From: Lama glama
Lineage: Eukaryota
DNA length: 64,000 bases
Direction of reading: 5' to 3'
Assembly (NCBI GenBank): GCA_028534125.1
Contig: CM052843.1
Location: 22,010,001-22,074,000 of the forward strand
In this document: in pieces, positions 7,001 to 52,790 of the stretch
Numbering within the stretch: position 1 is the stretch's first letter
Layout: every line of letters starts with the position of its first letter
Notes under the pieces: generated by a model
The model's input: the letters and a program-made list of their open reading frames with translations, nothing else
What the model was told of the DNA's origin: nothing
Database searches by the model: none
Program-made: the position numbers and the translations under genes

Positions 7001-7159
7001 ACGGTCATGTGGACACACAGAAGATAAAGTCATCGTGACACGTGTGTGAGAAACATCAGCGACACAAACGAGAGACTTGAAACAAAGACCTCACTTAAGA
7101 ACTTGACGCCAACTTCACGTTCATATTCCTTTCGTTAGAGGTCACCACAAGACACTGAA

Positions 7160-7290
7160 AATGAAGTGTGTGTACATGTACGCCTGAAACAGGAATGGAC
7201 ACCACGTTGTAAACTGACTGGACTTTAATAAAAAAGGAAAAACAATACAACTATAAAGTTAAAAAACAAAAAAGAGAGAGAGAGAGAGAA
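7160..7290 (+). mobile_element. Short L1 3'-terminal fragment with A-rich/(GA)n tail
   Basis: gacaccacgttgtaaactgactggactttaataaaaaa resembles the artiodactyl L1 3' terminus. Confidence 0.6.
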
Positions 7291-9149: not shown

Positions 9150-10900
9150 AGACCCACAAGAAGCTGGCGATAAAGAAATACACATTTATTAACTAGAGAG
9201 ACGAGCCGATTCATGAGATAACAAATGAATCACTGAAGAGAAAACGAGCGAAGTGTGCACCGTGATTTAAATCCAGTGACAGCACAGCCGGTGAGACAGT
9301 CAAGCATCAGTACACAAATACCAGTTACACTTTAAGTGCCATCAAAGAGCAACTGCGACCTCGAACATCACAGTTACGTTAGCGTCAAAAATACTTATGA
9401 ACACGTGTAACAAAAGATGCTCAGACGTGTAACTTAAAACCTGAACACAATGCTGAGAGACACAATGAGGACCTAACAAACGGAGAGACACACCATGTCC
9501 ACGGGTCAGAAAAGCAACCCCGCTCAGTTCTACCCCGATGGCTACACAGGAGCGATGCAGCCCCAATCAAACCTTGGCAGGAGTTTTGAAACTGACAGGT
9601 TGATTCTAAAATTCACATGAAATGAAAATGATGTCAATTAGTCAAAACAACTTTGGAAAAGAACGACATTAAAGAATTCACGCTACCTGATTTGAAGAGC
9701 CACTGTAAAGCTGCGGGAATGAGCGCAGTGTGATGTTCCGTGAGAATGGACACAGCGATCAACGGGCAGATTAGAGCCCAAGACGCAGCTCACACTACGA
9801 GGCCACTTGACAGAAACGCCAGGGCAAGTCCGCGGAAGAGGAACCGTCTGTCCTGCAGACCAGAGGCCCACGTGAGAAACAATGAGCACCGACCCTTTCC
9901 TCGCGTGTACACGAGAATTAACTGCAGGGAAGCAGAGGTCCAAATGTAAGAGATAGAACCGTAAACCATGTAAAACACACATGAAAGAAACCTTTATGGC
10001 TCTGGATCAGGCAACACATTTTTAAGCAGCACATGCAAACTATGAACTATAAAATTAAATTTTGGTGAACTGAGCTTTCTCAAAACTCAAAACTTTTGCT
10101 TTCCAAAAGCCACTAGTAAAAGCATAAAGTCACCCACTGGTATCTGGCAACAGCATTCCATCCGTAACACATAAAGAATACTTACAACCTAATATTAAGA
10201 AGACATTCGGGGGAAGGAATAGCTCAGAGGTAGAGTGCATGCCTGGCATGCACGAGGTCCTAGGTTCAATCCCCAGCGCCTCCATCAAAAACAAGTAAAT
10301 AAATAAGTAGACCCATTGACCTCCCCCCAGAAAACAAATAAACAAAGTAACATTTAAAGACCCTTTAAAAAGACATTCAGTTCGCTAGTAATAGGAACAT
10401 GCAAATTAAGACCACAGTGAGTCCCCACTCACACCCACTAATGACTGAAATCGACAAGGCTGGCTGCACCGAGTGCTGTGGGGCCCGGGGCAAACGGCTC
10501 CCTTACCCTCCACTGCTGGTTTCAACGTGGGGGCCGGCCACCCTGGGAAACAGGTCAGCCCTTCCTCATGCAGGAAAACCTGTACTCACCCAGCAGGCCC
10601 TCTCCCAGGCGGTCACGCAGGAGCAGGAGACTCGTGCCCTCACGGGCGTCACCTGAACGAGCGCAGAGCACCACGAGCAGGAGCCAAAGTCGAGACCCAG
10701 TGTGCACGTCCAAGCGTCGCCTGCACCAGCACGTCCTTCACGGAACTGCGCCACGCGGAGGATGGTCCCCCACCGGGGCACGCCCTCTTTATCACATGAT
10801 TGGGGGTGGCCGGAGCCCAGCAGCAGGACCCAGGCATAACTCAAGGGACCCACTGTAACCCTCAGCATGTGGCCAGCACTCAGAACGCTGGCTGAACGCG
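9150..10900 (+). mobile_element. Ancient L1ME-type ORF2 3' half / 3' end remnant (hosts the SINE at 10209)
   Basis: gaaactgacaggttgattctaaaattcacatgaaatg, caaaacaactttggaaaagaa, ctacctgatttgaag and catgcaaattaagaccacagtgag are recognisable L1 ORF2 segments. Boundaries approximate. Confidence 0.78.
10209..10364 (+). mobile_element. Camelid tRNA-derived SINE (Vic-1-like) with target-site duplication
   Basis: A-box TAGCTCAGAGG, B-box GGTTCAATCCC, tRNA-Ala-like body and A-rich tail. TSD ttaagaagacattc (10195-10208) / ttaaaaagacattc (10365-10378). Inserted into an older L1. Confidence 0.88.
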
Positions 10901-11913
10901 GGGACCAATGCGACAAGTGAATGACTGCCACGCGCAGGCTAATTCCTGGTTTCCTGGCATTTGTGCCATGAAGACAGTCTTCCTCCGGAACCAGAATGAA
11001 GGCAGAGCCACGTGGATGAGAACACTGCTGGCCAGATCCTTGCCACAGTTTTAACTGTGAATTGCCTTTCCTGGTTTGCCTGTGTCCAGTCCCACCAGGA
11101 CATGCTCCCCCGGACACTCCAAGTGAGCGCCACACTAGGGATGAGGTCAGGGCAGAAAGGACGTCTGCACACAGCGTCACGCTTCTCGTGTGCCCGGGGC
11201 GCCTTGGCGGCAACGTTCATCTTAATGAAAGGCCAGGAAATTCGTCATCAGGCTAATAAGTACCTGCTTTCCCCGAGAAAGATCAGCAAGATGGTAGAGC
11301 GAGGTCAGTTTCACAGGCCACTGTCCCGGGGAAGAGGGGGCGGGGGGACGCCTCACTGAGGTTCCCCACAGGTCCAGGAACTTCTGCGGGTAGAGCACAT
11401 TTGACTCATCCACCTCCTGGGGCACTGCCCTTCTATAAGCTTTTCCACTTTAAGGGAACACGGCTGGTGGGGCCCAGGCTTGTGGAGGAGGAACCCACAG
11501 GGCTCCCTGACAAGTTTCCAGTGGGTGACAAGTGGCTCCGATTTGCCTGGACATGCTAGTGAAGTGCTCCCACCCATAGGGCAGGCTCCCGAGACCAGAC
11601 ATGCCAGCAGGGCGTCCACGTAGTCTGCTAGGGAGAGGAAGGGCTCACGGCTTCTCTTCCGAACCTTGTCTTTATAACAGCACTGCAACAATCTCTATGA
11701 ACTAAGTATTTGTCACAACTCGGTCATCTAACCAGAGTCACTAGGTTTCACAGGTGAGTGTAATCTGAATACACCCCCGCATTTGTTTCCTACGATCCTG
11801 TTAGAAACACAGCACCTGTTCCTTAAAACCTAAAGATAGACTTACCCTATGATCGAGCAATCCCACTCCTGGACATATATCCAGAGGAAACTCTTAATTT
11901 GAAAAGACATATG

Positions 11914-12080: not shown

Positions 12081-12371
12081 TAGAGATTACCATACTAAGT
12101 GAAGTAAGTCACACAAAGACAAATATCATATATCACTTATGTGTGGGGTTTAAAATATGATACAAAATGAATTTATTTACAAAGCAGAAAGAGGCTCACC
12201 AACATAGAAAACAAACTATGGTTACTGAGAGGGAGGGATAAATTGGGAGTTTGGGATTGGCAGATACAAACTACTACGTATAAAATAGATGAACAACGAG
12301 ATTCTTCTATACAGCACAGGAAACTATATTCAATATCTTGTAATAACCTAAATGAAAAAGAATATGAAAAG

Positions 12372-12373
<2 letters not shown>

Positions 12374-12420
<47 letters not shown>
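12374..12420. repeat. (TA)n microsatellite within the L1 3' UTR
   Basis: About 23 perfect dinucleotide units. Confidence 0.97.
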
Positions 12421-12426
<6 letters not shown>

Positions 12427-13610
12427 ATCACTATGCTATATACCAGAAACCAATACAACATTGCAAATCAACTATGATTTAATTTTTTAATCTTTTTGAA
12501 AAAGAAACAAAGCACCTGCTGGATATGAGTACATACAGGGATACCCTGTAACCATTAACTGTCGCAAACTCATAGTCACTATCCTTTCATGTTAGTTAAC
12601 AGTTCTCAGGGAATTTGCATGAGGATAACGCAGTGCCTGCCTTCACCAGGTATCCTCCACTCCACTCTTAAACAGCATCCCAGTCCTCCATCCAACAAAC
12701 AAATAAAACAAGGAAAGAAAATCGGAGACCTCATTTTGAACTGTTACTCCTGGTTGGCAGAATTTTTCTGCTTTCAGTGTAGCAAGGACAGTACATATAC
12801 TGTAAAATAATTTGTATTCAAAGGCATTTTCCCTTCTGAAGCTAAGCCAGTGACACGTTGGAGAATATTACAGGTTTTGTGCTCTGTGCTCAGCTAACCC
12901 ATGTATTGCTTAACTCAAAGAAGGTGTCCCAGCTGGTAAGAAGAGCAGCAAGTCTTTGGTTTGCAGTCACAGAGCCTGCCTTTCAAATAAGCAAAGGGTC
13001 CCTTTACTGGGGTATTTTCCAGAGCAGCAAGGTCGGGCTGCGCCCGGAGCCAGGGGCAGCTGTTAGCTTGTCTTTATTTGGGAGGCTGCCTCTTAACCAA
13101 CCTGAAAATTGCCAGGGGCTTTTCTCAGATTCCACTGACAGCCTCCACCCCCACCCACCCCCACCCACCCCCACCCACCCCCGAGAGCGAATGGGGGCAA
13201 AAAAAGATAGCTATTCCAAGTTCCTCTTGCTCTCAGTAACATCACCAAAAACTTGAAGGTATCCTGCAGCAGACTCCCTCCTGGCATCTGAGCAGAAGGA
13301 CTGACAACCTGAGAGCCAGCTCCTCGCCCTCCTGCACCCGCGGAACAGTCGTCCGGGCAACACACCTGCTCATCCCTGCAGCCCCTCGGGTTCCCAGACC
13401 TCCCTGAGGCCCCGAAGCCTCCCTGGTGTGACGCCCCCCACCGACATCCCCACACGGCACGCACACAGATTTCAGACCTTGAGGACTCACGGTGCAGTCC
13501 AGCCAAGGGGCTGTGAGCCCAAGCCAGCAGCACCTGGAGGGTCAAACCCGGACGTCACAGTCAGAGCACGGTCCGGCGCGCCTGCAGGGCTCTGCCGGCC
13601 AGACCGCGCC

Positions 13611-13797
13611 CGGCCCGGCAGCCAATCGGCGGCCGCCGAGCGTTGCCATGGCCACACCGCGTCTTCGGCGGCGCAGGGCTCGGCCCGGCAGCCAATCGGC
13701 GGCCGCCGAGACGTTGCCATGGCCACGCGGCCTGTGAGAGCCAAGCTCGCCCCAGCCCGGGAGCCAATCAGCGACCGCCCGGTGTTGCCATGGCCAC
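13611..13797 (+). promoter_or_regulatory. Three tandem CCAAT (NF-Y) + X-box (RFX) modules, ~71-bp period
   Basis: CCAAT at 13622, 13692 and 13764. GTTGCCATGGCCAC at 13642-13655, 13713-13726 and 13784-13797, each one mismatch from the RFX palindrome GTTGCCATGGCAAC. Confidence 0.85.
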
Positions 13798-13921
13798 GCC
13801 GAGAGTGAGGGACGCGCACGCGCGTGGTGGAGAACCGCAGCCGCTCCGCGCGCAGGGCTCGCAAGGGCCCCCGCAGCCACCCCCGGACACCCGCCGCGAG
13901 CCGGTGCCCTGAGCGCCCGAC

Positions 13922-13979
13922 ATGAACCGCAAGAAGCTGCAGAAGCTGACGGACTCCTTAACTAAAACTAGCAAGCACT
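13922..13979 (+). CDS. EFCAB1: EFCAB1 coding exon 1 ([19 protein letters not shown] + 1 nt)
   Basis: ATG at 13922 (gacATGa) with an in-frame TGA upstream at 13910-13912; donor GTAAGT at 13980. Confidence 0.95.
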
Positions 13980-16900
13980 GTAAGTAAGAATCAAGCGCCG
14001 GGCGGCAGAGGCTCCCTGGCCAGGTCTCCTGTCCCTCCCGGGGCGAGGGTCCCGCCTGCGGAGCCCGAGTGCGGGCCGAGCCCGTGCATGCCCAGCCCTA
14101 ACGAGAAATCTGGGGGGGAGCCCGACCGCAGCTCCTTGGGCGGCACCCACGCCCGCCCGGGGTCCCGAGGAGCGCTTCCAGGCATCCAGGCGCCCAGTTC
14201 CCCACACGCACGCACTCGCTTTGCAGACCCTCATTTAACGTGCCTCTGGGGCACAGAGGTGTGGTGTGTATGCCCAGGGGACACGCGCGGCTTTAGCCTC
14301 AGACGCAGACGGAAGACAAGGACGCAAAACCGCCGGACTCACGGAAAGTGGCACAACCAGCAGGCACCTGCTTTCTGGCTCTTCTTAGAGCAAATCAGCC
14401 CGCACAGGGCAAGTGCTGGGAACTTAGCAGGAGGCCCACGGGGGAAAGTGGGTGTCAGTGCCCACAGCCTCAGGAGGGATGAGCTGCGGGGGCACGGAGA
14501 CCTGGACCTCGGAGCGAGGAGGTTTGCTGGGAAACCAGACTGATCTGCTCCCAGCTCTAGAGCCCACTTTCCACAGTTTCCAAAGCGAAGGAAACTTGGC
14601 AGGTGGCAAGAGGCCCCTATGGAAGACGTCTGCTCTCATCTCACAAGCACTCTGAAAGGTGGCCCTAAAATTTCAGAGGTAACTTTAGAATTGTGTGCAA
14701 CTGAGAGGCAGAACTGTGCGTGGGCTGTGGATTGTGGCTTAGACCGGGAAGGGACTGTCTGACAAGCAGGTTTGTAAGGTGTGTGCTGATTGCAAAGCTA
14801 CTGGCTCCCTGAAGAAACAGAAGCCGTAATCCCAAGGCCATTGGTGCAAAACAGGAAGAACAAACATGTTTTGATGTGGTTTTAGATGTGACGGGATCTA
14901 CTCATATTTCATATCTAAAATAATGAGTGGTAGGAGATGCTTTCAGGATGGCACTGGGAATAAAAGTTCCAGTGGATATAAGCATCCTAAACTTCCAAAA
15001 AAAGTCATCCTATAATTAAGATATTATTATGATTATTATAATCTGATGAGAATTTTGTTCTGTTGTTGTTTTTCTTAAAATACTTCCATTTCTGGGAAAA
15101 GACCAGATCTCCTTAAAACATCTACCAAACTTTGAATAAACAATGCGAAACTGCTATACACAATGCTGAATTTGATTCAGTCTGTTTAGTGAGTTTACAA
15201 CATGTCGCAGACATTCCAAGAATGTATTTAGAGGTGAATGTACTTAAAGATAAGTGAAACCATGGCAATAAAACCAGTCTTGATTTTTGTTCTTACATAA
15301 AATTTTTAGTGTTTAAAAATTCATTCATAAGAACCTTGATGATTATTAGTTAAATTCTATAGAAATAGTGACAAATCATGGACATTATAATAATTTTGAG
15401 TTTCTTTAAATAGAAAACCTTTCTCCTGAAGTCAGGTTTCCTTCTAGTTGCCAGGTGATAATCCCAGCAGGGTGAAGTGGATAAATTTTGTAGAATCAGA
15501 GAAGAAGAAATTCCCTTAAGTGGAGGCCTAGTTAATCCACCACACTACAGAACAGACTCAGACCAATCCAAAAAGAGGAAAGCCAGTTCTCAAATTTCCT
15601 TAACTTCATTTAGTTTTGTATTCTTGAATTTAAGAAACATTTCAGCAAAAAATAATTTATCTTACAGAAAAAAATTACCCATCTTGGAACCTTTGGGTAA
15701 TAATTTAAGTTAATATATATTCTTTCACTTTTATTGCAGCCGAGATAGAAAAGTGGCTCATCTACCTTCCCTCAGCTAGCGTTTCACACACGTAAACAGA
15801 TTGTGTCATTCTTCGTGCAAGTTTTTCTTCCCCAGCCATTAACTTTGTTATGGAATGTTTTATGTTTTAGAATTTTGTTTAATTTTTAGAATATTTTTAT
15901 GTGGGTAGATGTACGTAACATAAAACTTACCATTTTAACTACCGTAAGTGCACACAGCCTGTGGCAGTAAGCACACGCACACTGTTGTGCAACCATCACC
16001 ACCGTCATCTCCAGAACTTTCTCATTTTCCCAAACTGAAACTCTGTCCCCAGTAAACTGTAACTGCACTTGCCCCAGCCCCTGGCCCATCATTCTACGTT
16101 CTGCCTCTGAATCTCCCCACTCCAGGTACATCATGTAAGTGCACTCATACAATGTTCGTCCTTTTGTGTCTGGCTTATTTCGCTCATAATGTCTTCACGT
16201 TCATCCATGCCATAGTGTGTGTCACAGTTTCCTTCCTTCTTGAAGCTGAATCATAATCCATTGTCTGGACAGACCACATCCTTCTCGCCCGCTCATCCAT
16301 CCATAGATACCTGGCCGCTGTGAGCGCCGGTGTACGGGTGTCAAGGCCTGTGTTGTCCATCCTGCACGGTCCATGCCTAGCGGTGGAGTCACTGGATCTC
16401 GCAGTATTTCTCTGTTTCACTTTTTTTGAGGCAGTGACATACCATTTTCTATGGCAACCACTAGCTCTTTTTAAAATGATAACCATTACATTCTTTTCTA
16501 CTATTTAATCAATTTATTTATCAATCATTTATTTTCCAAAGTTTTCAGCCTTCATCTTAAATTGTGGTCCCCAGAGCTGGAAATCGCCCTGGCCTGCAGG
16601 ATGTGGTGTGATTTCTTCGTTCCTTTGTGCTGTCTTCCGTTGTGTGCATGCAGCCTCCACCCGTTTTAAAAAATACTCAACCATAATTTTGTCGGTTTTG
16701 AAATAAAATCTTCCCCATCTTCCACCTATACCTCCTATTTAACCTCACTGTCGTGTTCTTAATGCCAGACACCAACGCTTCCACCCGCACACCTCAGACA
16801 GCGATTGGGACACAGTTAGCCCCGTGTTTATAAACACCGCCCGCCCACAGTTACATGTGTGACAAGCTCACGTGTGTGTGCACACCCTGGAGATAAAAGT

Positions 16901-19900
16901 GTCCTTCCTCCAAAGTGCTGCTGGACAGTTGCATGTTTTCACATCATCCACCATGAGAACTGGCATGGGTGCTAAAAGATGCTTAAGTCCTTCCTTATTG
17001 GAAAGTAGCTGATTCTGGTTTCCAAAACCTGGATTACGGATTCACCAAGGCTGATTGAAATGAAAACTGTTGCCTTGCTTTCATGAGCCTGGTGTTGTAT
17101 TCCCAGGGGAAGGTTAATTTGCAAGCCTCATCAATGCTTCTAATCAAAAAGTACCTTAACACCCCCTTGCTTGCTTTGACTCCTCCCTCTATGGCTTTGT
17201 CAAGCTTAGAGTCTGGACCCACAGTCACTCTGCGGGTAACTTGGCAAAGCTCTCTTCTTCTCTCCCAAGTGGGGCTGAACTTACACCTGCCTGAGGGAGG
17301 GGCTGCTGCTCCTGCCTCCATGGGGCCCTCAGGAGTGGCGTCTTCTGTTGGCCTGGGGGCCACGAAACTCAGCCCAGGACAGTCGCCTGTCGACAGCAAC
17401 ATATTTATGGCTTCAATGTTGTTTGTCTATAAAGTCTTCAAATGCAACATTTAAGCTAGAAACTAAAGATTAAAATGCATTTTGCCACGTCTTGATTTTA
17501 CTCTTTCACAGTTAATAAATTTGAAGTGAAATGTCTCATCAGTCTTTTCTATAACCTGGTGGGAGATGTAACCGAGCGGCAGGGTGTGGTCATTGGACTC
17601 GATCGCAATGCGTTTCGAAACATCCTGCATGTGACATTTGGAATGACAGATGACATGACCATGGACAGAGGTAAGAGGACAATCTTCAGATGGGCCAAAT
17701 CCAGCCATAACAGGGGAAAGTAGTTTGGGGTTTAGACATGCTCTTGGTGGGAAGCTTAACTTCTACATTCCCAGTTCCACCCAGAAATAAACCTCGGTTT
17801 ATATTCATGGGTAGGGAGATGGGGGGCGTAGGGAGGAGATGGGCATAGGGAGGAGACGGGGGCTGTAGGGAGGAGATGGGGGGCGTAGGGAGGAGATGGG
17901 GGTGTAGGGAGGGAGGTGGGGACCACTCTTTCTGTGTTTCTGTGTATTTAAGAAGAGGACAAAGCTTGGCTAACTAGGTTTCCCTTACTTTATATTAGAA
18001 ACCCTGAAATATTTCTCTTTCTACTTCATAAGTATAATAATAAAAAATTTGAAAAGGACCTGTATATTTCCTTAAATCATCAAAAGTATTTCCATAAAAA
18101 TAACATAATCTTATCTGTCACGTAATAGCATTACTCTTCTTGAGTAATAAAGACATAAAATCATATATTTTATGTTAATATATCAACGTATTTAATATAC
18201 CAGTATGTTCATATGTGAGCTGTTGGATCAATATGCTTAGACATTCAGAATTTACTTGTTCCCACAAAATGTCAAGGGACTCTTCCCAAAGCTTCAGTGA
18301 AAGTTCCCAGTGTTTCGACATCTCAGTGTCCTCCGTGGTCAGATGAGGGCACGGGGCCACGCGGCCCTGTGGTCCTGCCTGAAAGGTGGGCAGCACCAAA
18401 GCAGACGCATCACTGAGAACAGAAGCCCAGCACGCGTGTCCTGCCTGCTTCTCTCTCCGCAGTTTTCCGAGGTTTTGACAAAGACAACGACGGCTGTGTG
18501 AGTGTAACGGAGTGGGTGTGTGGACTATCAGTGTTTCTTCGAGGGACTCTGGAAGAAAAAATGAAATGTAAGCCTTCACGTTGCCCTCTCGGCTTGTTCA
18601 CGAGGTCCCTAAGGAGTCTAGCCCGGCGCCCTCCGGCCCAGCTGGGACGGTGGGCTTGTCTGCTGTCTGGTGGTTTGAATTCCCAGCAGCCTCTTTTATG
18701 GAGTGAATTCAAGTCAATGATAAGGATTGAAAAAAAAAATGAGAAAGAGGAAAATCAGGAGATTCCGAGGAGGAATCCGTGCCAAGCAAGACCGCGCAGG
18801 CTGACCACATATGCACACTTGCGTATGAAGGTGGGGAGCGCCTTACATACCTCATCACTGGAGTCGGAACCACAAAGGGAGAGAACATGGGTGCAAGTGT
18901 TCCCACTCTCAGTTAACTCCTCATTCACTCCAGGGGGCTCCGTTTCAGTCAGTTTCCCAAGATTTTCAAGATGAAATGTTAACTTGTCGGTGTTCCCGGC
19001 ACGCTCCCCGCAGCTGAGAGTGAAGAAGGTTGTTCTAAGATTGTCGAGTAGAGTCGACAAGTAGGCCTGCAGCCCTTTTTACAGAAACCGGGTTGCACGG
19101 AGGCCTTTGGCCTGAGAAGGACATTAACACTAGAGCCCTGGGCTCTGACCACTTGATTAGAGTGAGTGTCCCCTTGCTGACAGTAGCAAATTCTTGTTGG
19201 TTATTTTTTTTTTCAAGATTGCTTTGAAGTGTTTGATCTGAACGGCGATGGATTCATCTCAAAGGAGGAGATGTTCCACATGTTGAAGAACAGCCTTCTC
19301 AAGCAGCCGTCCGAAGAAGACCCTGACGAAGGAGTTAAAGATTTGGTCGAAATAACACTCAAGAAAATGGTAAATATGGGCAAGCTAGGCCACATAGGGG
19401 AGAGAAGTAAGAATTCAAATCACAGTGCCCACGTTTCCCACGTAGTGAAGTAATGCTCTTAGAGCGTGCTCTTTTGTTACGTAAAAGTTCTCTTCGACGT
19501 CAGTATCTGCCAGCTTTCCCCTGCTGATACTTGAACTGGAGGAGCAGTAGGTATTGGTGGTGGTGTCAGCATGTTAACTGATGCATGGCTGGCCCCCCAG
19601 GACCGCGACCACGACGGGAAGCTGTCCGTCGCAGACTACGAACAAGCCGTCAGAGAAGAGACTCTCCTACTGGAAGCATTTGGACCATGTCTGCCTGACC
19701 CAAAGGTGACAGTACTGCTTTCGCTGAACAGTGACCAAAATATACCGTAGGGCCAGCAGCCCAGGGCTTCCTGGTTTGGGGGGTGATCAGGTGAACCACA
19801 TTCCCCTCAGAAAATGGCTTCAGAAGAGAGAAAGCCCACTGAAGACAACAGCTGGTTCATGGCCTGGTACCTAGATGGATGGGTGGGTGGGTGGGGGATG

Positions 19901-20777
19901 GAAGGGTGGATGGGTGGGTGGGTGGATGGGTGGACAGATCTCGTAAGTGCCTGGTGCAGAGTTCTGGATCTCTGTCCTTCTGTCTCCTCAGGAATTTCAT
20001 CATTTACCTGCATCTTTACATTTCAACCTCTTCCCTCACTACTAAAACCTTTCTATCAGAATTTAAACAGATCTAAACCTGTCGCATCTGACAAACAAAA
20101 GAGAAGGGAGGGAGGGAAAGAACGTCCCCGAATCCCACACCTGCCCCTATTTGCTGTCCGAGGCTTTTTCACAGCCAGGCGTCTTAGAAGAATTGTCCGC
20201 ATTCGTGCCTTACACGACCACCACTTTCTCCTGTCTGCCCTTGACGCTGCTCTTGCCAAGGTCACCACGCCCGCCTAGTGAACAATCCCAAGGGTTCAGC
20301 TCTTGGGTTCTTGTCTTCCTCGCCCTCATCCCTTCCCCACCCCGAGCTCCTCGTCCAGCTTCTCCTGTCCAGGAAGCATCTGCGCTGCCCACCCCAGCCT
20401 GGCTGCGACATGGTCCTTCCTCCTGGACCCCCACTGTGTGCCCACCCTCCGGCCCGCCCTGCGGGCTCTGGCCTGTGAGCCGAGCTCAGTGGGCGGGGCT
20501 CCCGGGGCTGGACCACGTGGTCTCGCCTGCCTGAGACCCCAGAACTGCCCTGGGCCGGAGCGGAGTCACCCAGTTGCCAGCTGTGAGTGGTTCCTGACCC
20601 TCGCTCCTCCCCAGTCACTGCCGTCTCTCCAGACATTAAGGAGACACGGAGAACATTTCCTGTTGTTGTTCCCCCTTGTTGGAAGTCTGTACTAACGTGA
20701 GCACTTCTACTTCACAGAGCCAGATGGAATTTGAAGCCCAAGTATTCAAGGAGCCACACGAATTCAGCGAGATGTGA
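13922..20777 (+). CDS. EFCAB1: Calaxin / EF-hand calcium-binding domain protein 1, spliced 6-exon CDS, 212 aa
   Basis: Exons joined at GT-AG sites give [212 protein letters not shown]. Exon lengths 58+159+105+152+105+60=639 nt, phases consistent. Three EF-hand loops: [36 protein letters not shown]. Recognised as mammalian EFCAB1/CLXN from memory of the family sequence. Confidence 0.97.
15885..16460 (-). mobile_element. L1MB-like 3' end in EFCAB1 intron 1 (antisense)
   Basis: aacataaaacttaccattttaac...ttgtgcaaccatcaccacc...tccagaactttctcattttcccaaactgaaactctgt...tttgtgtctggcttatttcgct matches the reverse complement of L1MB 3' ends. Confidence 0.85.
17512..17670 (+). CDS. EFCAB1: EFCAB1 coding exon 2 (FNKFEVK...MTMDR), 159 nt, phase 1-1
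   Basis: Acceptor ttttactctttcacag, donor gtaaga; overlaps ORF-track entry 17526..17723. Confidence 0.95.
17809..17921. repeat. G-rich minisatellite (~20-23 bp, gtagggaggagatgggggc-like) in intron 2
   Basis: Five to six imperfect copies of tagggaggagatggg. Confidence 0.9.
18463..18567 (+). CDS. EFCAB1: EFCAB1 coding exon 3 ([18 protein letters not shown]...EEKMK), 105 nt, phase 1-1
   Basis: Acceptor cttctctctccgcag, donor gtaagc; encodes an EF-hand loop. Confidence 0.95.
19218..19369 (+). CDS. EFCAB1: EFCAB1 coding exon 4 ([18 protein letters not shown]...LKKM), 152 nt
   Basis: Acceptor is a poly-T tract followed by caag, donor gtaaat; canonical EF-hand; overlaps ORF-track entry 19229..19453. 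Confidence 0.96.
19601..19705 (+). CDS. EFCAB1: EFCAB1 coding exon 5 ([13 protein letters not shown]...LPDPK), 105 nt, phase 0-0
   Basis: Acceptor ggccccccag, donor gtgaca; encodes the last EF-hand loop and the [11 protein letters not shown] motif. Confidence 0.94.
19874..19934. repeat. (GGAT/GGGT)n simple repeat in intron 5
   Basis: gatggatgggtgggtgggtgggggatggaagggtggatgggtgggtgggtggatgggtgga. Confidence 0.9.
20718..20777 (+). CDS. EFCAB1: EFCAB1 terminal coding exon ([19 protein letters not shown])
   Basis: Branch point TACTAAC at 20690-20696, acceptor cttctacttcacag, stop TGA at 20775-20777. Confidence 0.93.
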   Translation, partial: SQMEFEAQVFKEPHEFSEM

Positions 20778-21890
20778 ATCCCTGAATGTCTGTGTTGTCT
20801 CAAGCGAGCGAATGAGGAGGCACATACAGACTGTGTGTCTTTCCTGCTCCGCTCAGGAGGTGACTGCGCACTCGAGGGTGGGGGACAGGGTTGACCGACA
20901 CGTAGCGCCCGGCTTTGGTTAGGATGCAAGTAAATCAGCCGAAGACAGGAAGCTCCCTGTGACACGTTGCTGGGTTGGCCGGACGGGTTACGTGCTAGAG
21001 ACGCCTTATCACCCAGACTTATCTGTTGACACACGTAACTGTCATGAAATGTTTGTATGAAGGAGATGAACAGAGAGATTACATAAGCATGAGTTATTTT
21101 CTTCATGTCAGAAAGATGCTGGGAATACATTTAAAAAATCACTGAAGCTCCTGAATTTCCTTTGGAGCAGTAAAGAGTCAAGACAACATCAGAGAGAAGG
21201 ATTCTGGCAGCGGGCCCTGGAAGGTGTTTCCACTGGGCACCGAGGGGGCTCAGGGACACGGAGCCTGCATTCGAACGACCTGTGTCCCTGCCTGAGGCCT
21301 CAGCGTGACAGCCTGGCTGCCCGCGGCCAGAATGGGCCTCCATGAACACTGTGGGTTGAAAGTACAAAGAACCCCAGACAGACCCCCACGAGGGGCAGAG
21401 GGGCAGTGGGCCTTCCTGGGCTTGATGGACAAGGCCTGGCCTCTGGGGTCACCCCAGTGACCCTCGCAGGGGGATGCAAAGCCCCCTCTCTGTTCTGTCT
21501 CCCTCTGTCTCCACCGCCAGCCCCTCTCTGTCCCCTTGGACCTGCCCCCCAGGATTCCTCTCCTGTAGCCCCTCATCCCAGGTCACAGCCCACGGTGCCC
21601 GCTGGCCAGGGACTCCTGCGGCCACCGCTCCCCCGGCCTCCTCCTGCCCAGCAGGTGTCTGTGGCCATAGAGGGAGTGTTGGGAATGCGACCTCAGTCTG
21701 GTCCTGGGCTGCGCTCTGCCTCCCGCAAAGGCTCCCGGGCAGGCTGCTGGGAGGGGACACCTCTGTCCACCAGAAGCACTCAGAGGCTGCTCCAGATATT
21801 AAGTCCCTTTTGTGATTGCATGTGCTCTGCTCTGATTAAGCAAAAACACACTGCGTGAAACAGAAAAGTAGACTGTTAAAAAGTGGACTG

Positions 21891-22083
21891 TATAGAAAAT
21901 AGACAAACAGCAAGGTCCTACTGTGCAGCTCAGGGAACCGTATTCAGCAGCCTGGGGTCACCTGTCAGGAAGAAGTGTGTGAGCAGGAACAGACATGTGT
22001 ACACACATGACCGCAGCACGCCGCCGTGCACCAGAAACCAGCCCCCTGCAACTGACCGTGCTTCAGTAAAAAAGGGGAAAAAA
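21891..22083 (+). mobile_element. Artiodactyl L1 3'-end fragment inside the putative EFCAB1 3' UTR, GC-shifted
   Basis: Colinear with 12280-12480 (aaaatagacaaacagcaaggtcctactgtgcagctcagggaaccgtattc...ccagaaacc...cttcagtaaaaaa). Confidence 0.8.
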
Positions 22084-22119
22084 GACTGCTACGAGTAAAT
22101 GGAATATGCACCTTCATGA

Positions 22120-22125
22120 AATAAA
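22120..22125 (+). terminator. Candidate EFCAB1 polyadenylation signal AATAAA
   Basis: First AATAAA I could find after the stop codon, followed by a U/GU-rich tract (ttttgctgtccaagtgtcttctt); implies a 3' UTR of about 1.35 kb. Confidence 0.55.
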
Positions 22126-22379
22126 AGCTCTTTTGCTGTCCAAGTGTCTTCTTAAAATGTTAGAGTCTTGGACTGTGACAAGATTTTTCTATCTTTTGTC
22201 GGCAACACAATATAGTTTAAATTTTTTATTGTACTTCTCTGAGTATCCATGATACAGGATCACTGAAGAGTATTTCAGAAGTTTAGGAAATTCAAAAATC
22301 AAAATTAAAATATTAATATTCTGGTGTAGACTCTTTTCAGCCTTTCTTAAGGCATTTGTAAGTATCCCCGTGGTTATGC

Positions 22380-22860
22380 ACGGAGCACACCCGTGTGTTT
22401 GAGCAAGCACGCTGGATCGCGCTCTGTCGGCTGCTTTTTGTGTCCCACTGTCTCAGGAGCACTGTCCTGGGCGGGCAGACACTCGTCCGGCACCGCTTCC
22501 CCGTCGCACACACTTGCTTGTTCCCACATTTTGCTGTTACGAGTAATGCCCCAAATAAACTCTCTTTGTAGGTAAATCTCTCCACGTGCTCACTTACTGG
22601 GGGTAATTTTGCAAAAGTCAGAATGTCGGGTGAAAGGCCTGCATGATTTTGTGATTTCCAGCATATGTTAGCAGGCACCATCCAGGAGGGCCTGCCAGGC
22701 CCACGCGTGAGAAGTGCGGGTGCGCGACCTTCGAGCTCCTCTGCCAAGTCTGTGCACCGTGGGTGACCAGGATTTTAATTTATCATGTAAAGAATTCCGT
22801 ACTTTTATATACCTGTACCTAACCTTTTTATTGCAGGCTGAGTAAAAACGGACTTCCACG
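22380..22860 (-). mobile_element. Old L1ME-like remnant (antisense)
   Basis: ttgttcccacattttgctgttacgagtaatgcc...gcaaaagtcagaatgtcgggtgaaagg...cccacgcgtgagaagtgc resemble the reverse complement of the L1 ORF2 end/3' UTR. Confidence 0.6.
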
Positions 22861-25214
22861 TGAATAATCCTGTTTTATTACTTGACTATTTCTAAAACTA
22901 AAAAAGCCTTCCAAAAAGTCTAAATAATTTTGTTGAAACTGAAGATGCTGTCCGCCCTGGACGAAGAACCTGGGGCTTCCCATCCAGTGCAGGGCTCGCC
23001 CCCGACCCCGTTCCTCCCCGTGATCTGTCCCAGTCGCTCTGTTCTGCTCTTCTCATTTCACTGCTGGAGCAACTCACAAATGATCTCAACACTGAGACTT
23101 CGCTCAGCTTAACAGCGGGGCGTCCGAAGGCAGCAGGTCCCTTTGAGGATGCATCCATCCCGTCTTGCTCTGCACCTCCCTTCCCGGGCGCAGCCAGTCC
23201 CTGCCGTTGGGCCCCGGGGTCAGGACCGCAGGGGAGCAGCCAGCGTCTGGAGGGTTGAACAGAGCCTCCCCCAGCTGGCTCCTCAGAGCGTGGCGTCCCT
23301 CCTCCCGCACTCGGGGGGCCCTCCGGGCAGGCTGCGCGCCCTCACAAGCAGCATGGAAAGACTCTGTTTGGGAAACAAGTACTTTTTTTTTAACTGCAGG
23401 ATTTGAAAACCACCACTGAAAACTGGTAGTCCTGCATTCTTCACCTGCAAACATCTCTGGTGCAAGACTGCACTTGTAAGAAGCCGAGCCTGCAACTGCT
23501 TGTACCGTAAAATCACCCCGAGCATCCACAGGTCCCCGCTGGAGCTGAGCCACTGGTTACCAGCGTCCAGGCCAGTCCCTCTGCCCTCGCCGGGCCGGGC
23601 CGGAGGGCTCTGCCACGCGGCCACCACTGCCACGGCCTGGATCCACCGCGACCCCCCCACACCCCAACACGGTTGTGTCATTTTTAATGAGAGAGATTGT
23701 AGAGGGAATTCCAGTCAAATCTGCTTAAAACCCCAAAGACAGCCGTGTCGAGACGCCTGCTCTGAGCCGCCCCTCGGAGCGCCCGTCTGCCCGACGCGCC
23801 TCGTCAGCTACGTTCGCCTCCCCGCGGAACCGTCCCCGGTCCCCCACGGCCGCCGGGGCTGCGGGCCGGCTCTCGCCGGGTGTGGCCGAGACAGGGTGAG
23901 GACTCACGAGGAGCTGCCGCAGGAGCGACACAGTGAAACACACCTTCCCCCCAGACCCCGTTCACGACGACAGGCAGCTGACGGCTCCCAGCGCCCTGGT
24001 CCTGACGTGTGGCTTTCCGTGCCCCCCCCCGCCTCCCAACACACCGTCAGGAAAACACTCCTCCCCCGAGACTCACAGCCTCCCCGGCAGCCACCCCGCC
24101 CTGTTACGTGGCCCGGCCGGCCCCGCAGAGCGCCGCGCTGGAAGGCGTCAGGTGACTCCGTGCCCTCAGCCTGTGCCCCGTCCCCTGTCCCGTCTCCAGG
24201 GGCTCGGTGTGGACGGGGGACACAGCGGCTCAGAGCCCAGGGCAGTGAGCCGGCGACGGAGAGGTGCACCAGGTGGGCCGAGAATCTACCGGTTTCCTCT
24301 GCAAGTGGCTTTCTAAGCTGAATCACTGCCTCCCGCCAGGGCGGTGAGCCCAGGGCCGGCTACAAGATTACTTCAAACCACGTGATCGAGGCTTCCTTAA
24401 ATCCTTCAGGATCGGAACAGTCAGAGAGCAAAACAACCCCTGTGACCTCAACTGCACGGCGCAAGAAGTCCAGGGAGCGCTCCGTCCAGGTTTCACGTAA
24501 ACGCAGCTTCAGGCCCACGCACCCCAGGCTGCTCCATGGTTCACCCGCACGTGTGGAGGGGACCCCGGCTCCCTGCAGGGCTCTTCGCGTCTGAAACCCC
24601 TTGGAATTTTCTTTCTTTAGTTGTAGTTCCCAGTTTGCACGTAAAGGTGTCCGTGTTCAGTCCCAAGAGGAGCCTGGACACTAGGCTGGGGCCTCGCCTG
24701 GTCACGCGGCCGGACTGTGGCTCCGAGGCCAGCGCGTGAGGAGAGGTGGGGCCGCGGCCGGCTGTCGGGGGAGCAGAAGTCCTCCTGGGAAAGGAGAGGG
24801 CTGGACTCCTCCAACAGGGGACACGGAAGGAGCCTCTGGGCCATCCTGGGCAGCACCTGGAAGTCCTCCCCCTGGAGAAGCAGAAGGTGCCGAGGCAGGT
24901 GGCCACGCGGTCCAGCAGCAAACACAAGAGCTTGGTGACGACGTGCCTCTTGCCAGATGCCAGGACCCAGCCCGAGGACCTCAGCGAGTGGAGGCGGGTT
25001 TGCGGCCAGGCCCCGACCACATCCCCCGACCTCATCCCTGACCTCACCAGTCACTGGACTTTGAAAGTCTGACGTAAATGAAACATGGTTTGTAGACCGG
25101 GGGGGGGGTTGGGGGGCTGTAGTTACAACAAGACCGCAGGATCCGGGCGGCTCCAGGCAAAGTCGGACCTGGGGCCACCCTATTCACACGCTATAAATTA
25201 CTCCAGAAGTGACA

Positions 25215-25320: not shown

Positions 25321-26426
25321 GATAAAAACCTGGAGGTGAAAGAGGTTTGCCTCCGACATCAGTGTCCCAGGGCCTCCTGAGTTCTCACGAGGAGCTTGTC
25401 GGTGACGAGGAAGATCGTGGCAACCAGGACTCGAAGAAATGGCCCTGGGCCCTCGCTCGTGACCAAACGTGGGCTTTGCTGAAGCCAAAGGGAGCTGAGG
25501 GATGTCTCTGGAAACAGCCTTAACAACCTGATGTATTTGCAGGCAGGACTCCCCTGAAACCAGGGCAAAACCCCGAGGGGAATTTTCACGAGTGTTGTTC
25601 TCTCAGAGTCAGTTTTTGTGACATCTCCCCCCATTAACACACACGCGCACACACACGCACTGCCCTCATCACAGACTCACAGGCGGACGCGTGCTAGTTC
25701 GTTCCCTTTAAGAGGCACACTCGAGTTCCTTGAATTTCCCTCTCGCCCAGCAAGACACCACTAATTCTGAAGCAGTCGGCACCGTCCTGCGCTCCCCACC
25801 AGCCGACCACGCTCGAGGCTCCGCGCGTTTGCTGCGCTGGCTGCGAGGTACTGGAGTGTTACCGAGAAGTTAGCGGGAAGCAGGGTCGCGGTGAAAGCAC
25901 CAAAGCCTACAAGCGGCTGGGCAAACACGGACTTGCCTGCAAGTTCTGTGAGGGTCAGCCGGCCAAATGCGGACCTTGGCCGCCTTGCTGTGCTCTTAAA
26001 TTGGATCATGTAAATTTGACCAAGTGCAAAGCAGGCCCCTTGTCTCTTTGAATTTCTAAATATGACTGGGTGCTGATTGTGACTCATGTAAACGCAGGAA
26101 AGAACACAGTGGCCCTAGGAATTAGGGTCAGTCGTCGCCTGGGAGGTGGGTGCACCTCCTGCTTGTCCAGGACCCTGAAACCTGTCCTGTTTGGGTCTGC
26201 ACACAACGGGTGGCCCCCACGTCCAGTGTCTGCAGACAGAAGTCACACTGTCCCGCCTGCAGGGAGCACACAGGCCAGGAAACTGGAGTCGCCGTGGTCT
26301 CGGGAAGAAGGAGGGGGAGGAGATGGAGGGAGAGGGAGGGGGTCCACTGAGTCAGGGGCACGGTTTTCAGCGCATGAGATGTTTAAGAAAACAGAGATAA
26401 GACTGAGTGTTAAGGGGGTGGGGGTT

Positions 26427-27085
26427 GCCCCTCTCCCTTCCCATCGCTGTAGGAAACCCTCGGGCAGAGTCCCGGCCTGGCTGCGGGGGGCAGACGCGCG
26501 CGGGCAGGGCAGGATGTGGAGCAGGCCGGGGCCTGCACGCCCGGCACCAGGTATGTGGCCCAGAGGAAGGCGCGCCCACGGCAGGTGCAGCGCAGCCAGT
26601 GCCCGCGGCCCCGGGGGAGGACCTGCAGGTGCAGTCGGGACATGTCCCGAGTCTGCAGGGCCACGCGTCTCTCTGAATAGCTGGGCGGCTGCCCTGTGCG
26701 CCCGCAGGAGCACAGCCGGGGGAGGGGGGAGGCAGAGGGTGGGTGCACTTTGGTGGGGCCCACGGTTCTGGCGGCTTCGCTGGCGCAGGCGGCATCCCCC
26801 CGGGGTGGGGTGCGGCAAGGGAGGCTGAGCCGTGCAGGGAGGGGAGGGGTGGTGGGCCCGGGCTCCGGCTCCCCCCTCCAGAGGCCGAGCTGGACATGGA
26901 GTCCGTGGCCCCTGCTCAGCCCTGGCCTCCCAGCCTTCACACTGGCGTCCTCTTCCATCCACCTTCGTCCCTCCCGGGACACGGTGGCTCCCCGAGCATC
27001 CCAGAGCCTCCAGCTGCATCTGGGTCCTGTTGGCTCATCCAGGGGCCGACAGGGGTCCAGGCCCACACCAGGCCCAGGGATCTTT
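26427..27085 (+). repeat. ~660-bp local duplication, copy 1
   Basis: Aligns end to end with 30797-31456; both contain tcgctgtaggaaaccctcgggcagagtcccggcctgg and end in ggcccagggatcttt. Confidence 0.95.
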
Positions 27086-28832: not shown

Positions 28833-30796
28833 AGAAACTTACACTCACACCAGCTGTGCTTTCTCCCTCTGACCTTGGCGGCCTTGTCCTTGGCCCGGGC
28901 GACCCCTTCTGCCTGGGGACAGGCCGTCTCTCACTGTCCCCTCGCAGGAGAGGGGTGGGGCTGGGCTGTGAAGGGGAGCAGAGCTCAGCTGGGGCTCTAG
29001 GACACACGCAGCCGGATTGCGGGCCCAAGGATGTCGGGCAGAAGCGGCTCTGCTCTGGTGGGCGGAGGTGCCACCTCTGGTGGACGTGAGGGGGAAACTG
29101 AGCATGGGCCCCGGGAGCAGGGAGGGGCCCCTGCACCCCGTCCCCGGGCACAGGCTTCATGAGCCCGGGGGCAGGTGGTGACGCGCTCAGGTGTGGACTC
29201 CCCCACCCCCGCCGGTGACACAGGAGTGACAGGAAGCCGGTGCGGGCAAGCGCAGATGGGCTCTGGGGTGGAGCATCCCTGTACCAGCCCGGGGCCGTCC
29301 AGGCCCAGCCGAGACCAGAGTGTCCCCCAGGAGCCAAGCCCCCCGCCTGCCTGGAGGGAGAGTCGGAGGCCCATAGGGCCGGGAGCGTCGGCTGAGGACA
29401 CATAGCCCTGGAGCGGCCACGCTGGACGGAGCCCTGCCACAGCCATGCCGAGGCCTGGGGAGCTCCGCTCTCGCGCTGGACACCAGCCGAGCTCGGCGGG
29501 GATCAGCAACACCACACAGTCTGTGAACAAAGTCACAGGTTTGACCAGAAGGAGTGAAAACTGAGGTTTGGTTCGGTGGCGTGGAGTCTTGGAAGAACAG
29601 TGACAAAAAGAACAGGCAGGACCTTCCCCAGGCGTTAGCCTCACCTCACCCACAGCTACGGACGCTTTTTAAAGGAAGCGGTCCTCACTGCGGGAGAGAG
29701 GGTTTGTCAAGACCCAGCAAGGAAGGTCTGACAGACGGCCGCCCTGGGGGTGTGGGGCGAGGCGCTCTGCCCACACGTGCAGCCACAGACGTGGACACCT
29801 GCGTGGAGACGCCCCAGTGGTCCCCCGCCCCTACGTCCCCACACCGGCCGCGCCTGTGGGAGCCAGGCAGCCCCAGTAACGTGCAGCTGGCTGTGCCTTC
29901 CTGGCACGGTTTAACCCCTCCGAGCACACTCCTCCCCCAGGACACACGGCCTCCTGTCTGCCTCCGCCGCCTCCTGCCCAGCCAGCCCACGCTGCCCCGT
30001 CAGGTGGTCCAGCCACACACACACTCGCGAGTGGAATACGGGCCCTCTGTCCCGCCACATCCCCGACGGCCCCAGTGGCGAATCCCCTGACAGGGTCCAG
30101 CGTCCCACCGTCCCACACAAAACAGAGTCTGAAGGAAATGCAGATGCCTACAAGAAAAAATTCCAATAAAGCAAGAAGCAAGATTGCAGCCTCCCGCTGG
30201 CGGAGCAGCTCTGAGCATGTGAGGCCCTGCAGCGGTGGCCTGTGCTCCGTCACTCACAGGATGCCTTCCCGATGCTCCATGACTGAGTGACAGCTCACAG
30301 AAGCAGCTGACGGAAACCGGGAAGTCAGATACAGGCCAGCGAGGCAGACAGTGGGCGGAGCTCAGAGCAGGTTCGGGGGGCCCGGGTGGGGAGAGGGCCT
30401 GCACCCCTTGTCCCCGCACACTGCTCCCACCGTCTACGCCGCTTCTCTCACCTCCTCCTGGTCGCTCTGAGCAAATCCACCCCTGTCTCTTAGAGCTTGA
30501 AAAAACTGCTAAAATGTTCGAAGTCCTGTAGCAAACAGAACTTGGTTTTACAAAAAGCTTATGTGCTGGTTCCGATGGGAAAGGACAGCTGGCCATCTCC
30601 TCTGAAGAGTCATCTAACCTCAGAAAACCCCGCTTCCCTGATGAGCATCTCCCCTTCCAAGCTCGCTGGTGCACCCGCATTTGACCCCACGACTGTTTCT
30701 TGAGAAACCATAATAAGCAAAAGGGTTGACAAGCGACAGCCAGGTGAAGGCGAGGTCCGAGGGGGGCTGAGCAGGAGGGACAGGCAGCAGGTGGGC

Positions 30797-31456
30797 GCCC
30801 CTCTGTCTTCCTGTCGCTGTAGGAAACCCTCGGGCAGAGTCCCGGCCTGGCTGCGGGGGGCAGACGCGCGCGGGCAGGGCAGGATGTGGAGCAGGCCGGG
30901 GCCTGCACGCCCGGCACCAGGTATGTGGCCCAGAGGAAGGCGCGCCCATGGCAGGTGCAGCGCAGCCAGTGCCCGCGGCCCCGGGGGAGGATCTGCAGGT
31001 GCAGTCGGGACATGTCCCGAGTCTGCAGGGCCACGCGTCTCTCTGAATAGCTGGGCGGCTGCCCTGTGCACCCGCAGGAGCACAGCCAGGGGAGGGGGAG
31101 GCAGAGGGTGGGTGCAATTTGGTGGGGCCCACGGTTCTGGCGGCTTCGCTGGCGCAGGCAGCAGCCCCTGAGGTGGGGTACAGTGGGAAGGCTGAGCCGT
31201 GCAGAGAGGGGAGGGGAGGGGTGGTTGGCCTGGGCCCCGGCTCCCCTCTCCAGAGGCCAAGCTGGACATGGAGTCCGTGGCCCCAACTCAGCCCTGGCCT
31301 CCTGGCCTCCAACTGGCGTCCTCTTCCGTCCACCTTTGTCCCTCCCTCGGCACGGTGGCTCCCCGAGCATCCCGGAGCCTCCAGCTGCCTCCAGGTCCTG
31401 TTGGCTCATCCAGGGGCTGACAGGGGTCCAGGGCCACACTGGGCCCAGGGATCTTT
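30797..31456 (+). repeat. ~660-bp local duplication, copy 2 (direct orientation, offset ~4370 bp)
   Basis: See copy 1; the ORF track also shows the shared peptide RCRKPSGRVPAWLRGADARGQGRMWSRPG in both copies. Confidence 0.95.
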
Positions 31457-51610: not shown

Positions 51611-51710
51611 GGGGGGGGGGGGGTAGCTCAGCGGTAGAGCACATGCCTAGTATGGACGAGGTCCTGGGTTCAAGCCCCGGTCCCTCCACTTTAAAACATT
51701 TAAAAAGAAA
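51611..51710 (+). mobile_element. Camelid tRNA-derived SINE (Vic-1-like)
   Basis: G-run then TAGCTCAGCGGTAGAGCACATGCCTAGTATGGACGAGGTCCTGGGTTCAAGCCCC and an A-rich tail. Possible TSD taagaggc (51603-51610) / taaaaggc (51711-51718). Confidence 0.85.
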
Positions 51711-51769
51711 TAAAAGGCCTGGGATTGCCCACACTGAGTGCGGGACGGCTTCTGCTCAGCAGTTCTAAG

Positions 51770-52790
51770 AGGAGAAAATGGGAAGAGAAAAAATATTTGA
51801 AGAAGTATCTGAAATTTTTCCAAATTTGATGAAAACTATAAACATACAGGTTCAAGAAGCACCACAAAACCTAAGTAATAAAAACAAAGAAACCAAACCA
51901 AGGACGCTGTCGGCAAGGCGCTCAGAATCAGCGATAACGGGGAAATCTTCAAAGCACCCAGAAAGGGGAAAAGGCGTACTGAGCAGAGGACCAAGGAGAA
52001 GCCTGGAAGCAGGACCCCGACAACGCGAGCCTGCGGCAGAGGAGCAGCATGTCTAAAACAGCGACACGGACGAAAACCGGTCAGCGGAGAACTCTTTTCA
52101 GGGGAGGGGAGGGCAGTCTTTCAAAAACACAGGCTAAATAATGACTTTTAAGACCTACAAGAGCTGAAAGAGCTCCTCGCCAGCCAGCCTGCGTGACGGG
52201 GAACGGTAAAGGCAGCTCCTGAGACACTGGTCCATCAAGGGGACACGCAGCCCCAGACGTTCACAGACCTCGTGAAAGATCCCCAGCACACACGGGCAGA
52301 GCCGGCAGAGCCGCGAGGCGACTTGTGAGGGAACGTTTCAGAAACTGGACTTCATCAACATTAAAAACGTTTTCTCTGCAAAACACGTTGTCAAGAGAAT
52401 AAAGGTCAAGCCTCACACGGCGTGTGCCTTCGAGTGGACGGGACGGGAAGGCCCGCAGCCCCCGTCCAGTCATGAGAAAGGCGTCTGACAAACCCAAGAA
52501 GAGGCACACGCTGCGAGGCACCCGGCCAGCCCTCCCCAGACTGTCGGCGCCGTCTGAGGACATCACAGACCCAGGGGCACAAAGGGGCAGGGGGACCTCG
52601 CGGGACGGGCGCTCTCGCCGGAGGGCCTCGGGCCAGAAGCTGAGGGACCTCAGCGAAGCCTGGATCCAGTGTCGGTGCTGTGACAGCGTGAACGGGGGCT
52701 GGGTGCAGAGCAGACAGGATTACGTCTGGCTTTTTCTGTGAATTTAAAGCTAAATTTTTCTAAAATAAAACATTTACGAAAAGAATAATT
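51770..52790 (+). mobile_element. Fragmented old L1: ORF1 remnant, short ORF2 piece, L1MC-like 3' end
   Basis: ORF 51778..52056 (EKIFEEVSEIFPNLMKTINIQVQEAPQ...KPR) resembles L1 ORF1p; aaactggacttcatcaacattaaaaac is ORF2-like; cagtcatgagaaaggcgtctgacaaacccaa is L1MC 3'-like; A-rich end near 52760-52790. Confidence 0.75.

Follow-up and report, generated by a model that had tools for sequence, protein, structure and literature searches.

Introduction

Several described systems resemble the locus reported here. Human and chimpanzee genomes contain tracts of GC-biased gene conversion (gBGC), identified with phastBias, that are about 1 kb long, consist mostly of changes from A/T to G/C (W>S) and cluster near chromosome ends (Capra et al. 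2013, PMC3744432). The camelid locus shares this direction and may share the scale and position, but its effect is summed over a much longer time, with 19% of A/T sites rewritten on average and 35% in one repeat copy (B). In human, W>S rates measured with repeats as neutral probes also rise toward the chromosome ends (Duret and Arndt 2008, PMC2346554); the same source cites Alu-based estimates and presents a hotspot model in which W>S changes are raised about five-fold. Its human average equilibrium GC is 0.37; the values of 0.73-0.74 obtained here come from a different method and are not directly comparable.

The gerbil runaway GC regions are likewise megabase-sized, GC-skewed mammalian domains that reach coding sequence (Pracana et al. 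2020, PMC7403616). There, however, all substitution classes are raised, whereas in the camelid zone neither GC-neutral changes (A/T to T/A, C/G to G/C) nor changes from G/C to A/T (S>W) are raised and GC stays below 0.7; the zone is not a runaway region of the gerbil type. Episodic gBGC in rodent exons (Riffis et al. 2025, PMC12290510) offers a further parallel, in that all amino-acid changes in a conserved gene are of the W>S type. Camelids have 2n = 74 chromosomes (PMC6371769). Our literature search, outside the scope of which lay most subscription journals and supplements, where mammal-wide surveys may include camelids, found no paper on gBGC in camelid subtelomeres, and passages of PMC11161765, PMC8336415, PMC6636035, PMC7288448, PMC13751797 and PMC6371769 contain nothing on this locus or on which of the two chromosome ends it occupies.

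Results

Two LINE-1 tails on either side of the calaxin gene

The window, which is the whole 64,000-nucleotide stretch analysed, corresponds to positions 22,010,001-22,074,000 of contig C28 (22,676,223 bases), 0.6 Mb from the contig end. It contains two copies of a repeat 3' end, A and B, 9.6 kb apart, which we take to be LINE-1 (L1). The features are as follows.

11803-11818, + strand: left target-site duplication of copy A, 15/16 bases identical
11820-11913, - strand: inverted 5' piece of copy A, matching L1 copies on the opposite strand
12081-12490, + strand: forward part of copy A, a LINE-1 3' end that includes an (AT)23 run; free of GC bias and older-type by its diagnostics
12503-12518, + strand: right target-site duplication of copy A, 15/16 bases identical
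13922-20777, + strand: EFCAB1 (calaxin) gene, start to stop codon, between copies A and B
21893-22069, + strand: copy B, LINE-1 3' tail truncated at its 5' end, with about 35% of its A/T sites rewritten as G/C

The element is dispersed and present in high copy (2303 and 8362 candidates in genome searches, roughly one copy per 10 kb), and the tails show 5' truncation, an A-rich tail and, in A but not in B, a target-site duplication. The near-intact duplication of the AT-rich copy A, recognised in the initial annotation, is well supported, with a score reached in 0 of 2000 shuffles. The inverted 5' piece lying within it presumably reflects L1 twin priming, and is itself unbiased (W>S 3/54, S>W 2/26). 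Behind copy B a purine tail runs to about 22085. No significant target-site duplication was found around B, 29% of shuffles reaching the best score, and a candidate chosen by eye, with a G/C-shifted right copy, was likewise not significant.

The four L1 strings quoted in the initial annotation are all present at their places, and the homology it proposed between the two copies is borne out by blastn (E about 1e-8, 65.5% over 116 bases) and by alignment. Copies A and B differ at 68 of 176 aligned positions; 59 of these have A/T in A and G/C in B, four the reverse, and five A/T against A/T, so that the mismatches do run mostly in one direction.

To polarise these changes we gathered 44 further copies within the genome (of 58 loci, 45 had a blast match, and one of these was dropped as a duplicate) and used their majority base at 158 conserved columns. 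The family is AT-rich, with 26% GC in these columns. Copy B has W>S changes at 40 of 114 A/T sites and S>W changes at 2 of 40 G/C sites, with two changes between A and T; copy A has 5/116, 8/41 and two, respectively (A versus B, Fisher p=4e-5). The counts in B are thus far from balanced, at 40 to 2. The 40 W>S changes comprise 16 A>G, 14 T>C and 10 transversions. A separate count by quarter of the tail gives W>S changes at 4/31, 15/31, 12/28 and 10/27 sites. Nine of the 40 create CpGs, in line with the annotation's remark that several do so, although most do not. Among 91 L1 tails scored, B, which that annotation had pre-selected, has the highest shift.

A GC-rich subfamily from which B might derive was looked for by genome search and not found: among 40 of 879 candidates scored none exceeded 75% over at least 140 bases, and the short matches of 89-92% over about 60 bases lie at the least-changed 5' end of B. 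Its nearest neighbour is 72% identical, against a median of 88% for other copies. With no close relative among the candidates scored, B was altered in place. An assembly artefact is unlikely, since 80-97% of sampled words from 19000-25000 are present in 20 of the 24 sequencing runs listed (eight studies, four organism labels).

A GC shift over 1.3 Mb of C28

Because search matches are biased toward the query, we sampled repeats by position, in 10-kb stretches along C28 and at both ends and the middle of further large contigs, with dense sampling of four more ends. These later sets were restricted to copies with coverage of at least 60% (L1) or 75% (SINE) and to columns with a 70-75% majority, and duplicate unplaced contigs were removed; the majority base of decayed copies may misplace ancestral CpGs. 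In the sampled stretches of C28, GC climbs from about 0.35 to 0.55-0.60 at 22.0-22.2 Mb and the CpG ratio from about 0.2 to 0.5-0.6; both are back at background by 22.5 Mb.

The shift extends over about 1.3 Mb, from 21.0 to 22.35 Mb, which we refer to as the zone; CpG observed/expected across it is 0.5-0.7. Its 14 L1 tails carry W>S changes at 279/1491 sites, so that 19% of A/T sites are rewritten on average, and S>W changes at 34/480, giving an equilibrium GC of 0.73, with 13 of 14 copies leaning toward GC. In 19 tails from contig interiors the figures are 173/2080, 97/661 and 0.36, and three copies lean toward GC (zone versus interior, Fisher p=5e-13). A tRNA-like SINE (67 copies) behaves in the same way, with 0.74 in the zone (13/13 leaning GC) against 0.37 in interiors (3/12). 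Together with an older L1 fragment described below, several neutral families thus show the shift.

The zone spectrum (A>G 122, T>C 107, T>G 26, A>C 24) is strand-symmetric and includes both transitions and transversions, and only 56 of the 279 W>S changes make a CpG. GC-neutral changes are not raised, at 25/1971 in the zone and 69/2741 in interiors, sets that are not age-matched; they are about half as frequent in the zone (p=0.003), which suggests that the interior set is older on average. For 26 copies on C28, the W>S rate rises and the S>W rate falls with flanking GC (rho 0.66 and -0.73). W>S rates vary among interior copies as well (p=2e-5), so rate heterogeneity is by itself no proof of hotspots.

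The zone is not unique, since SINEs at other GC-rich contig ends also reach 0.70 (15/17 leaning GC), and one end sample has GC of 0.50 or more in 33 of 37 contigs, against 4 of 25 middles (rounded values). L1 tails at these other ends, sampled thinly and without age matching, lean weakly (0.50, 5/12 copies; 2/5 at the start of C23 and 2/4 at the end of C3), so that, judged by L1, the C28 zone exceeds the average end in strength. Composition peaks 0.5-0.6 Mb inside the end of C28. In the last 0.25 Mb GC and CpG are at background, and four L1 tails there (22.4-22.68 Mb) are unshifted, at 0.39. The last 10 kb of C28 showed no telomere repeat array, so "subtelomeric" here refers to the contig end.

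Shifted and spared repeats alternate within the window

Further repeats of the window were compared with their relatives:

1918-2673, strand not assigned: old A-rich interspersed repeat; strong shift in pairwise comparisons, which are not independent
10210-10328, + strand: tRNA-like SINE, 1.5 kb left of copy A; mild shift, 5 W>S and 2 S>W
15900-16310, - strand: older L1 fragment in the first intron; shifted, W>S 32/210 and S>W 9/133
51614-51714, + strand: tRNA-like SINE; shifted, 9 W>S and 1 S>W
51757-52420, strand not assigned: repeat fragments without shift, 103 versus 119 pooled pairwise differences in seven matches

For the first-intron L1 fragment, 29 reference copies give 0.090 and 0.096. 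The old repeat at 1918-2673, presumably an L1 ORF2 remnant, has GC of 0.51-0.53 against 0.28-0.39 in six homologous stretches. A genome search with 1850-2350 gave one weak match and otherwise nothing but identical pieces of short length, all on small contigs, relatives being barely found at the DNA level because the repeat is so heavily rewritten, and a PDB search with one of its frames gave no match.

The five shifted repeats (1918-2673, 10210-10328, 15900-16310, copy B and 51614-51714) are thus interleaved with unshifted ones, namely copy A with its inverted piece and 51757-52420, which is a second spared patch.

Some other elements of the window were also noted. A third L1 tail fragment at 7156-7236 is too short for counts. 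The first intron includes a 1-kb AT-rich stretch (14800-15880, 0.33) with no repeat match; together with copy A it leaves the CpG island flanked on either side by DNA that looks unshifted. A 670-base local duplication (26420-27085 and 30790-31456; 92% identical, GC 0.70-0.72) has only these two occurrences in the genome, and the differences between its copies show no strong direction.

Relative age of copies A and B

Diagnostic columns divide the L1 tails into an older-looking type (24 copies) and a newer type (49 copies). Divergence from the majority of the same type is 13.5% pooled for the older-looking type (quartiles 9.8-17.5%; copies outside the zone) and 10.1% for the newer. Copy A covers 16 diagnostic columns and is older-type at 12 of them; it diverges by 11.1% from the older-type majority, and has a best genomic match of 85% over 292 bases among 40 of 8362 candidates scored. 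Its S>W changes (9/35) exceed the decay in the rest of the zone (p=0.01 in a longer alignment), and its rates match those of its 29 nearest relatives (0.37 versus 0.38). Its GC-neutral rate in the tail is low, at 1/144. Copy B is newer-type at six of eight columns, a weak call in that five of these six states are G or C and could be mimicked by the bias. Newer-type copies in the zone are themselves shifted, for example with 20 W>S against 1 S>W changes at 21.85 Mb, so the process ran after the newer type had spread.

The initial annotation took copy A to be the younger and suggested that the pair could date the process. A recent insertion would have a close sibling and few changes, whatever their class. 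Copy A shows neither feature, and we consider it likely to be about as old as B or older, lying in a patch that the process missed. Dating by GC-neutral changes fails for want of events (two in A and two in B). Copy A is the one exception among 14 zone L1 copies, and so controls well for place but poorly for time. Because it is a local exception and shifted and unshifted repeats alternate, the A/B contrast probably reflects place, not time.

The calaxin gene and its surroundings

A Pfam scan of the 145 longest stop-to-stop frames of the window gave one match, the calaxin EF-hand. Copy A lies 1.4 kb upstream of the EFCAB1 start codon and copy B 1.1 kb downstream of the stop codon. PRKDC exons are found 0.3 Mb further out on C28; in human, PRKDC and EFCAB1 map to 8q11.1-q11.21, next to the centromere (PMC5264603).

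For exons 2-6 of calaxin the comparison was with the three mammalian chains of this protein in the PDB; the first exon was left out, one position at which the chains disagree was skipped, and ancestral codons were inferred from the residues. These chains we take to be from pig, cattle and human. Eight positions differ from the residue common to at least two chains. Seven of the replacements (I>T, Y>C, I>V, H>R, F>V, N>H and N>S) each correspond by the shortest path to one A/T-to-G/C change, D>E is ambiguous, and none needs a G/C-to-A/T change, a ratio of 7:0 for which arithmetic gives a two-sided p=0.016. Two of the seven, H>R and F>V, are located in the last EF-hand loop, at positions that are presumably not calcium-binding.

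The promoter CpG island includes, at 13610-13800, three tandem copies of a unit (77% alike) with a CCAAT box and a GTTGCCATGG motif, the latter being, we assume, the RFX X-box of ciliary genes. Downstream of the gene, an AATAAA is present at 22120, 50 bases past copy B and within an AT-rich stretch of 240 bases. The 3' untranslated region of calaxin may include copy B.

Discussion

We propose, with a probability of about 0.82, that copy B was inserted as an ordinary AT-rich LINE-1 tail and had A/T sites changed to G/C thereafter, likely by repeated gBGC in a zone of high recombination near a chromosome end. The shift is large, one-way and strand-symmetric, occurs in two repeat families over about 1.3 Mb, and is interrupted by spared patches; conversion at recombination sites is its likely cause, as established knowledge would suggest and in keeping with the published pattern. 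Meiotic breaks would be repaired from the homologue, and A/T:G/C mismatches in the heteroduplex DNA would be resolved slightly more often to G/C, so that new G/C alleles would fix faster and new A/T alleles slower. With hotspots about 1 kb wide that move, B would have lain under strong conversion over the lifetime of the repeats, and copy A, at a distance of 9.6 kb and of similar or greater age, would have escaped. The process would have been active at least in part after insertion of the newer L1 type and the SINE. Simple arithmetic puts the time-averaged, population-scaled bias, roughly, at about 1.5 across the zone and, according to the estimator used, at 2.4-4.9 in B. The locus works like a gBGC domain, and on four of the features tested (an excess of W>S changes, GC-neutral changes that are not raised, strand symmetry without restriction to CpG, and independence of function) it is one. 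Of the initial annotation's reading, a one-way, fixation-type shift that gBGC fits best is upheld, and neither of its two refuting conditions, a GC-rich subfamily and balanced counts, was borne out.

That annotation's dating model, in which one intense episode covered the whole locus and copy A was inserted afterwards, draws on the near-intact target-site duplication of A, the lack of a significant one at B, and the low GC-neutral rate of A. Loss of the duplication at B is, however, an expected outcome of heavy rewriting. The older-type diagnostics of A, its 11% divergence and S>W decay, its best match of only 85% among the candidates scored, the newer-type zone copies that are already shifted, the second unshifted patch at 51757-52420 and the weakly called type of B all speak against it, and we regard it as improbable. 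A regional mutation bias, through GC-biased mutagenic repair or through low methylation sparing CpGs, is no more probable than this. Substitution counts alone cannot separate mutation from fixation, and the CpG ratio of 0.5-0.7 across the zone would suit low methylation; but low methylation, which cuts S>W changes, does not account for a two- to four-fold rise in W>S changes, of which only one in five makes a CpG; nor are GC-neutral changes raised.

Explanations confined to copy B fare worse. Selection against AU-rich sequence might be imagined for the most shifted copy, which lies in sense orientation, possibly in the calaxin 3' untranslated region, between the stop codon and the AATAAA at 22120. 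The shift is nonetheless also present, across 1.3 Mb, in 13 SINEs and 12 further L1 tails, and the AT-rich 240 bases directly 3' of B are still at GC 0.30, leaving selection a very small chance. Smaller still is the chance that B came from a naturally GC-rich L1 subfamily or was A-to-I edited as RNA before insertion. The 89-92% matches at its 5' end and the fact that A>G is the commonest change could be read in this way; yet a subfamily source is largely refuted by the genome search, with 40 of 879 candidates scored, and by nearest-neighbour identity, and editing, which would give A>G on one strand only, is ruled out by the strand symmetry, T>C being as common as A>G alongside 10 transversions.

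The process is well known and no theory is changed; the locus is new. Tentatively, and with the odds somewhat against the full sequence of events, we suggest that the PRKDC-EFCAB1 block, pericentromeric in human, became a camelid chromosome end and then one of the genome's strongest GC-conversion domains, rewriting single repeats at a third of their A/T sites and pushing amino-acid changes in calaxin, a ciliary calcium sensor, including two in the last EF-hand loop, with the dense repeat copies forming a kilobase-scale fossil recombination map. Nearby repeat pairs gauge where conversion acted, not when. In camelids, for which a fine genetic map is lacking, past recombination can be charted from repeat copies, and where genes at their chromosome ends show amino-acid changes, the cause may be conversion, not adaptation.
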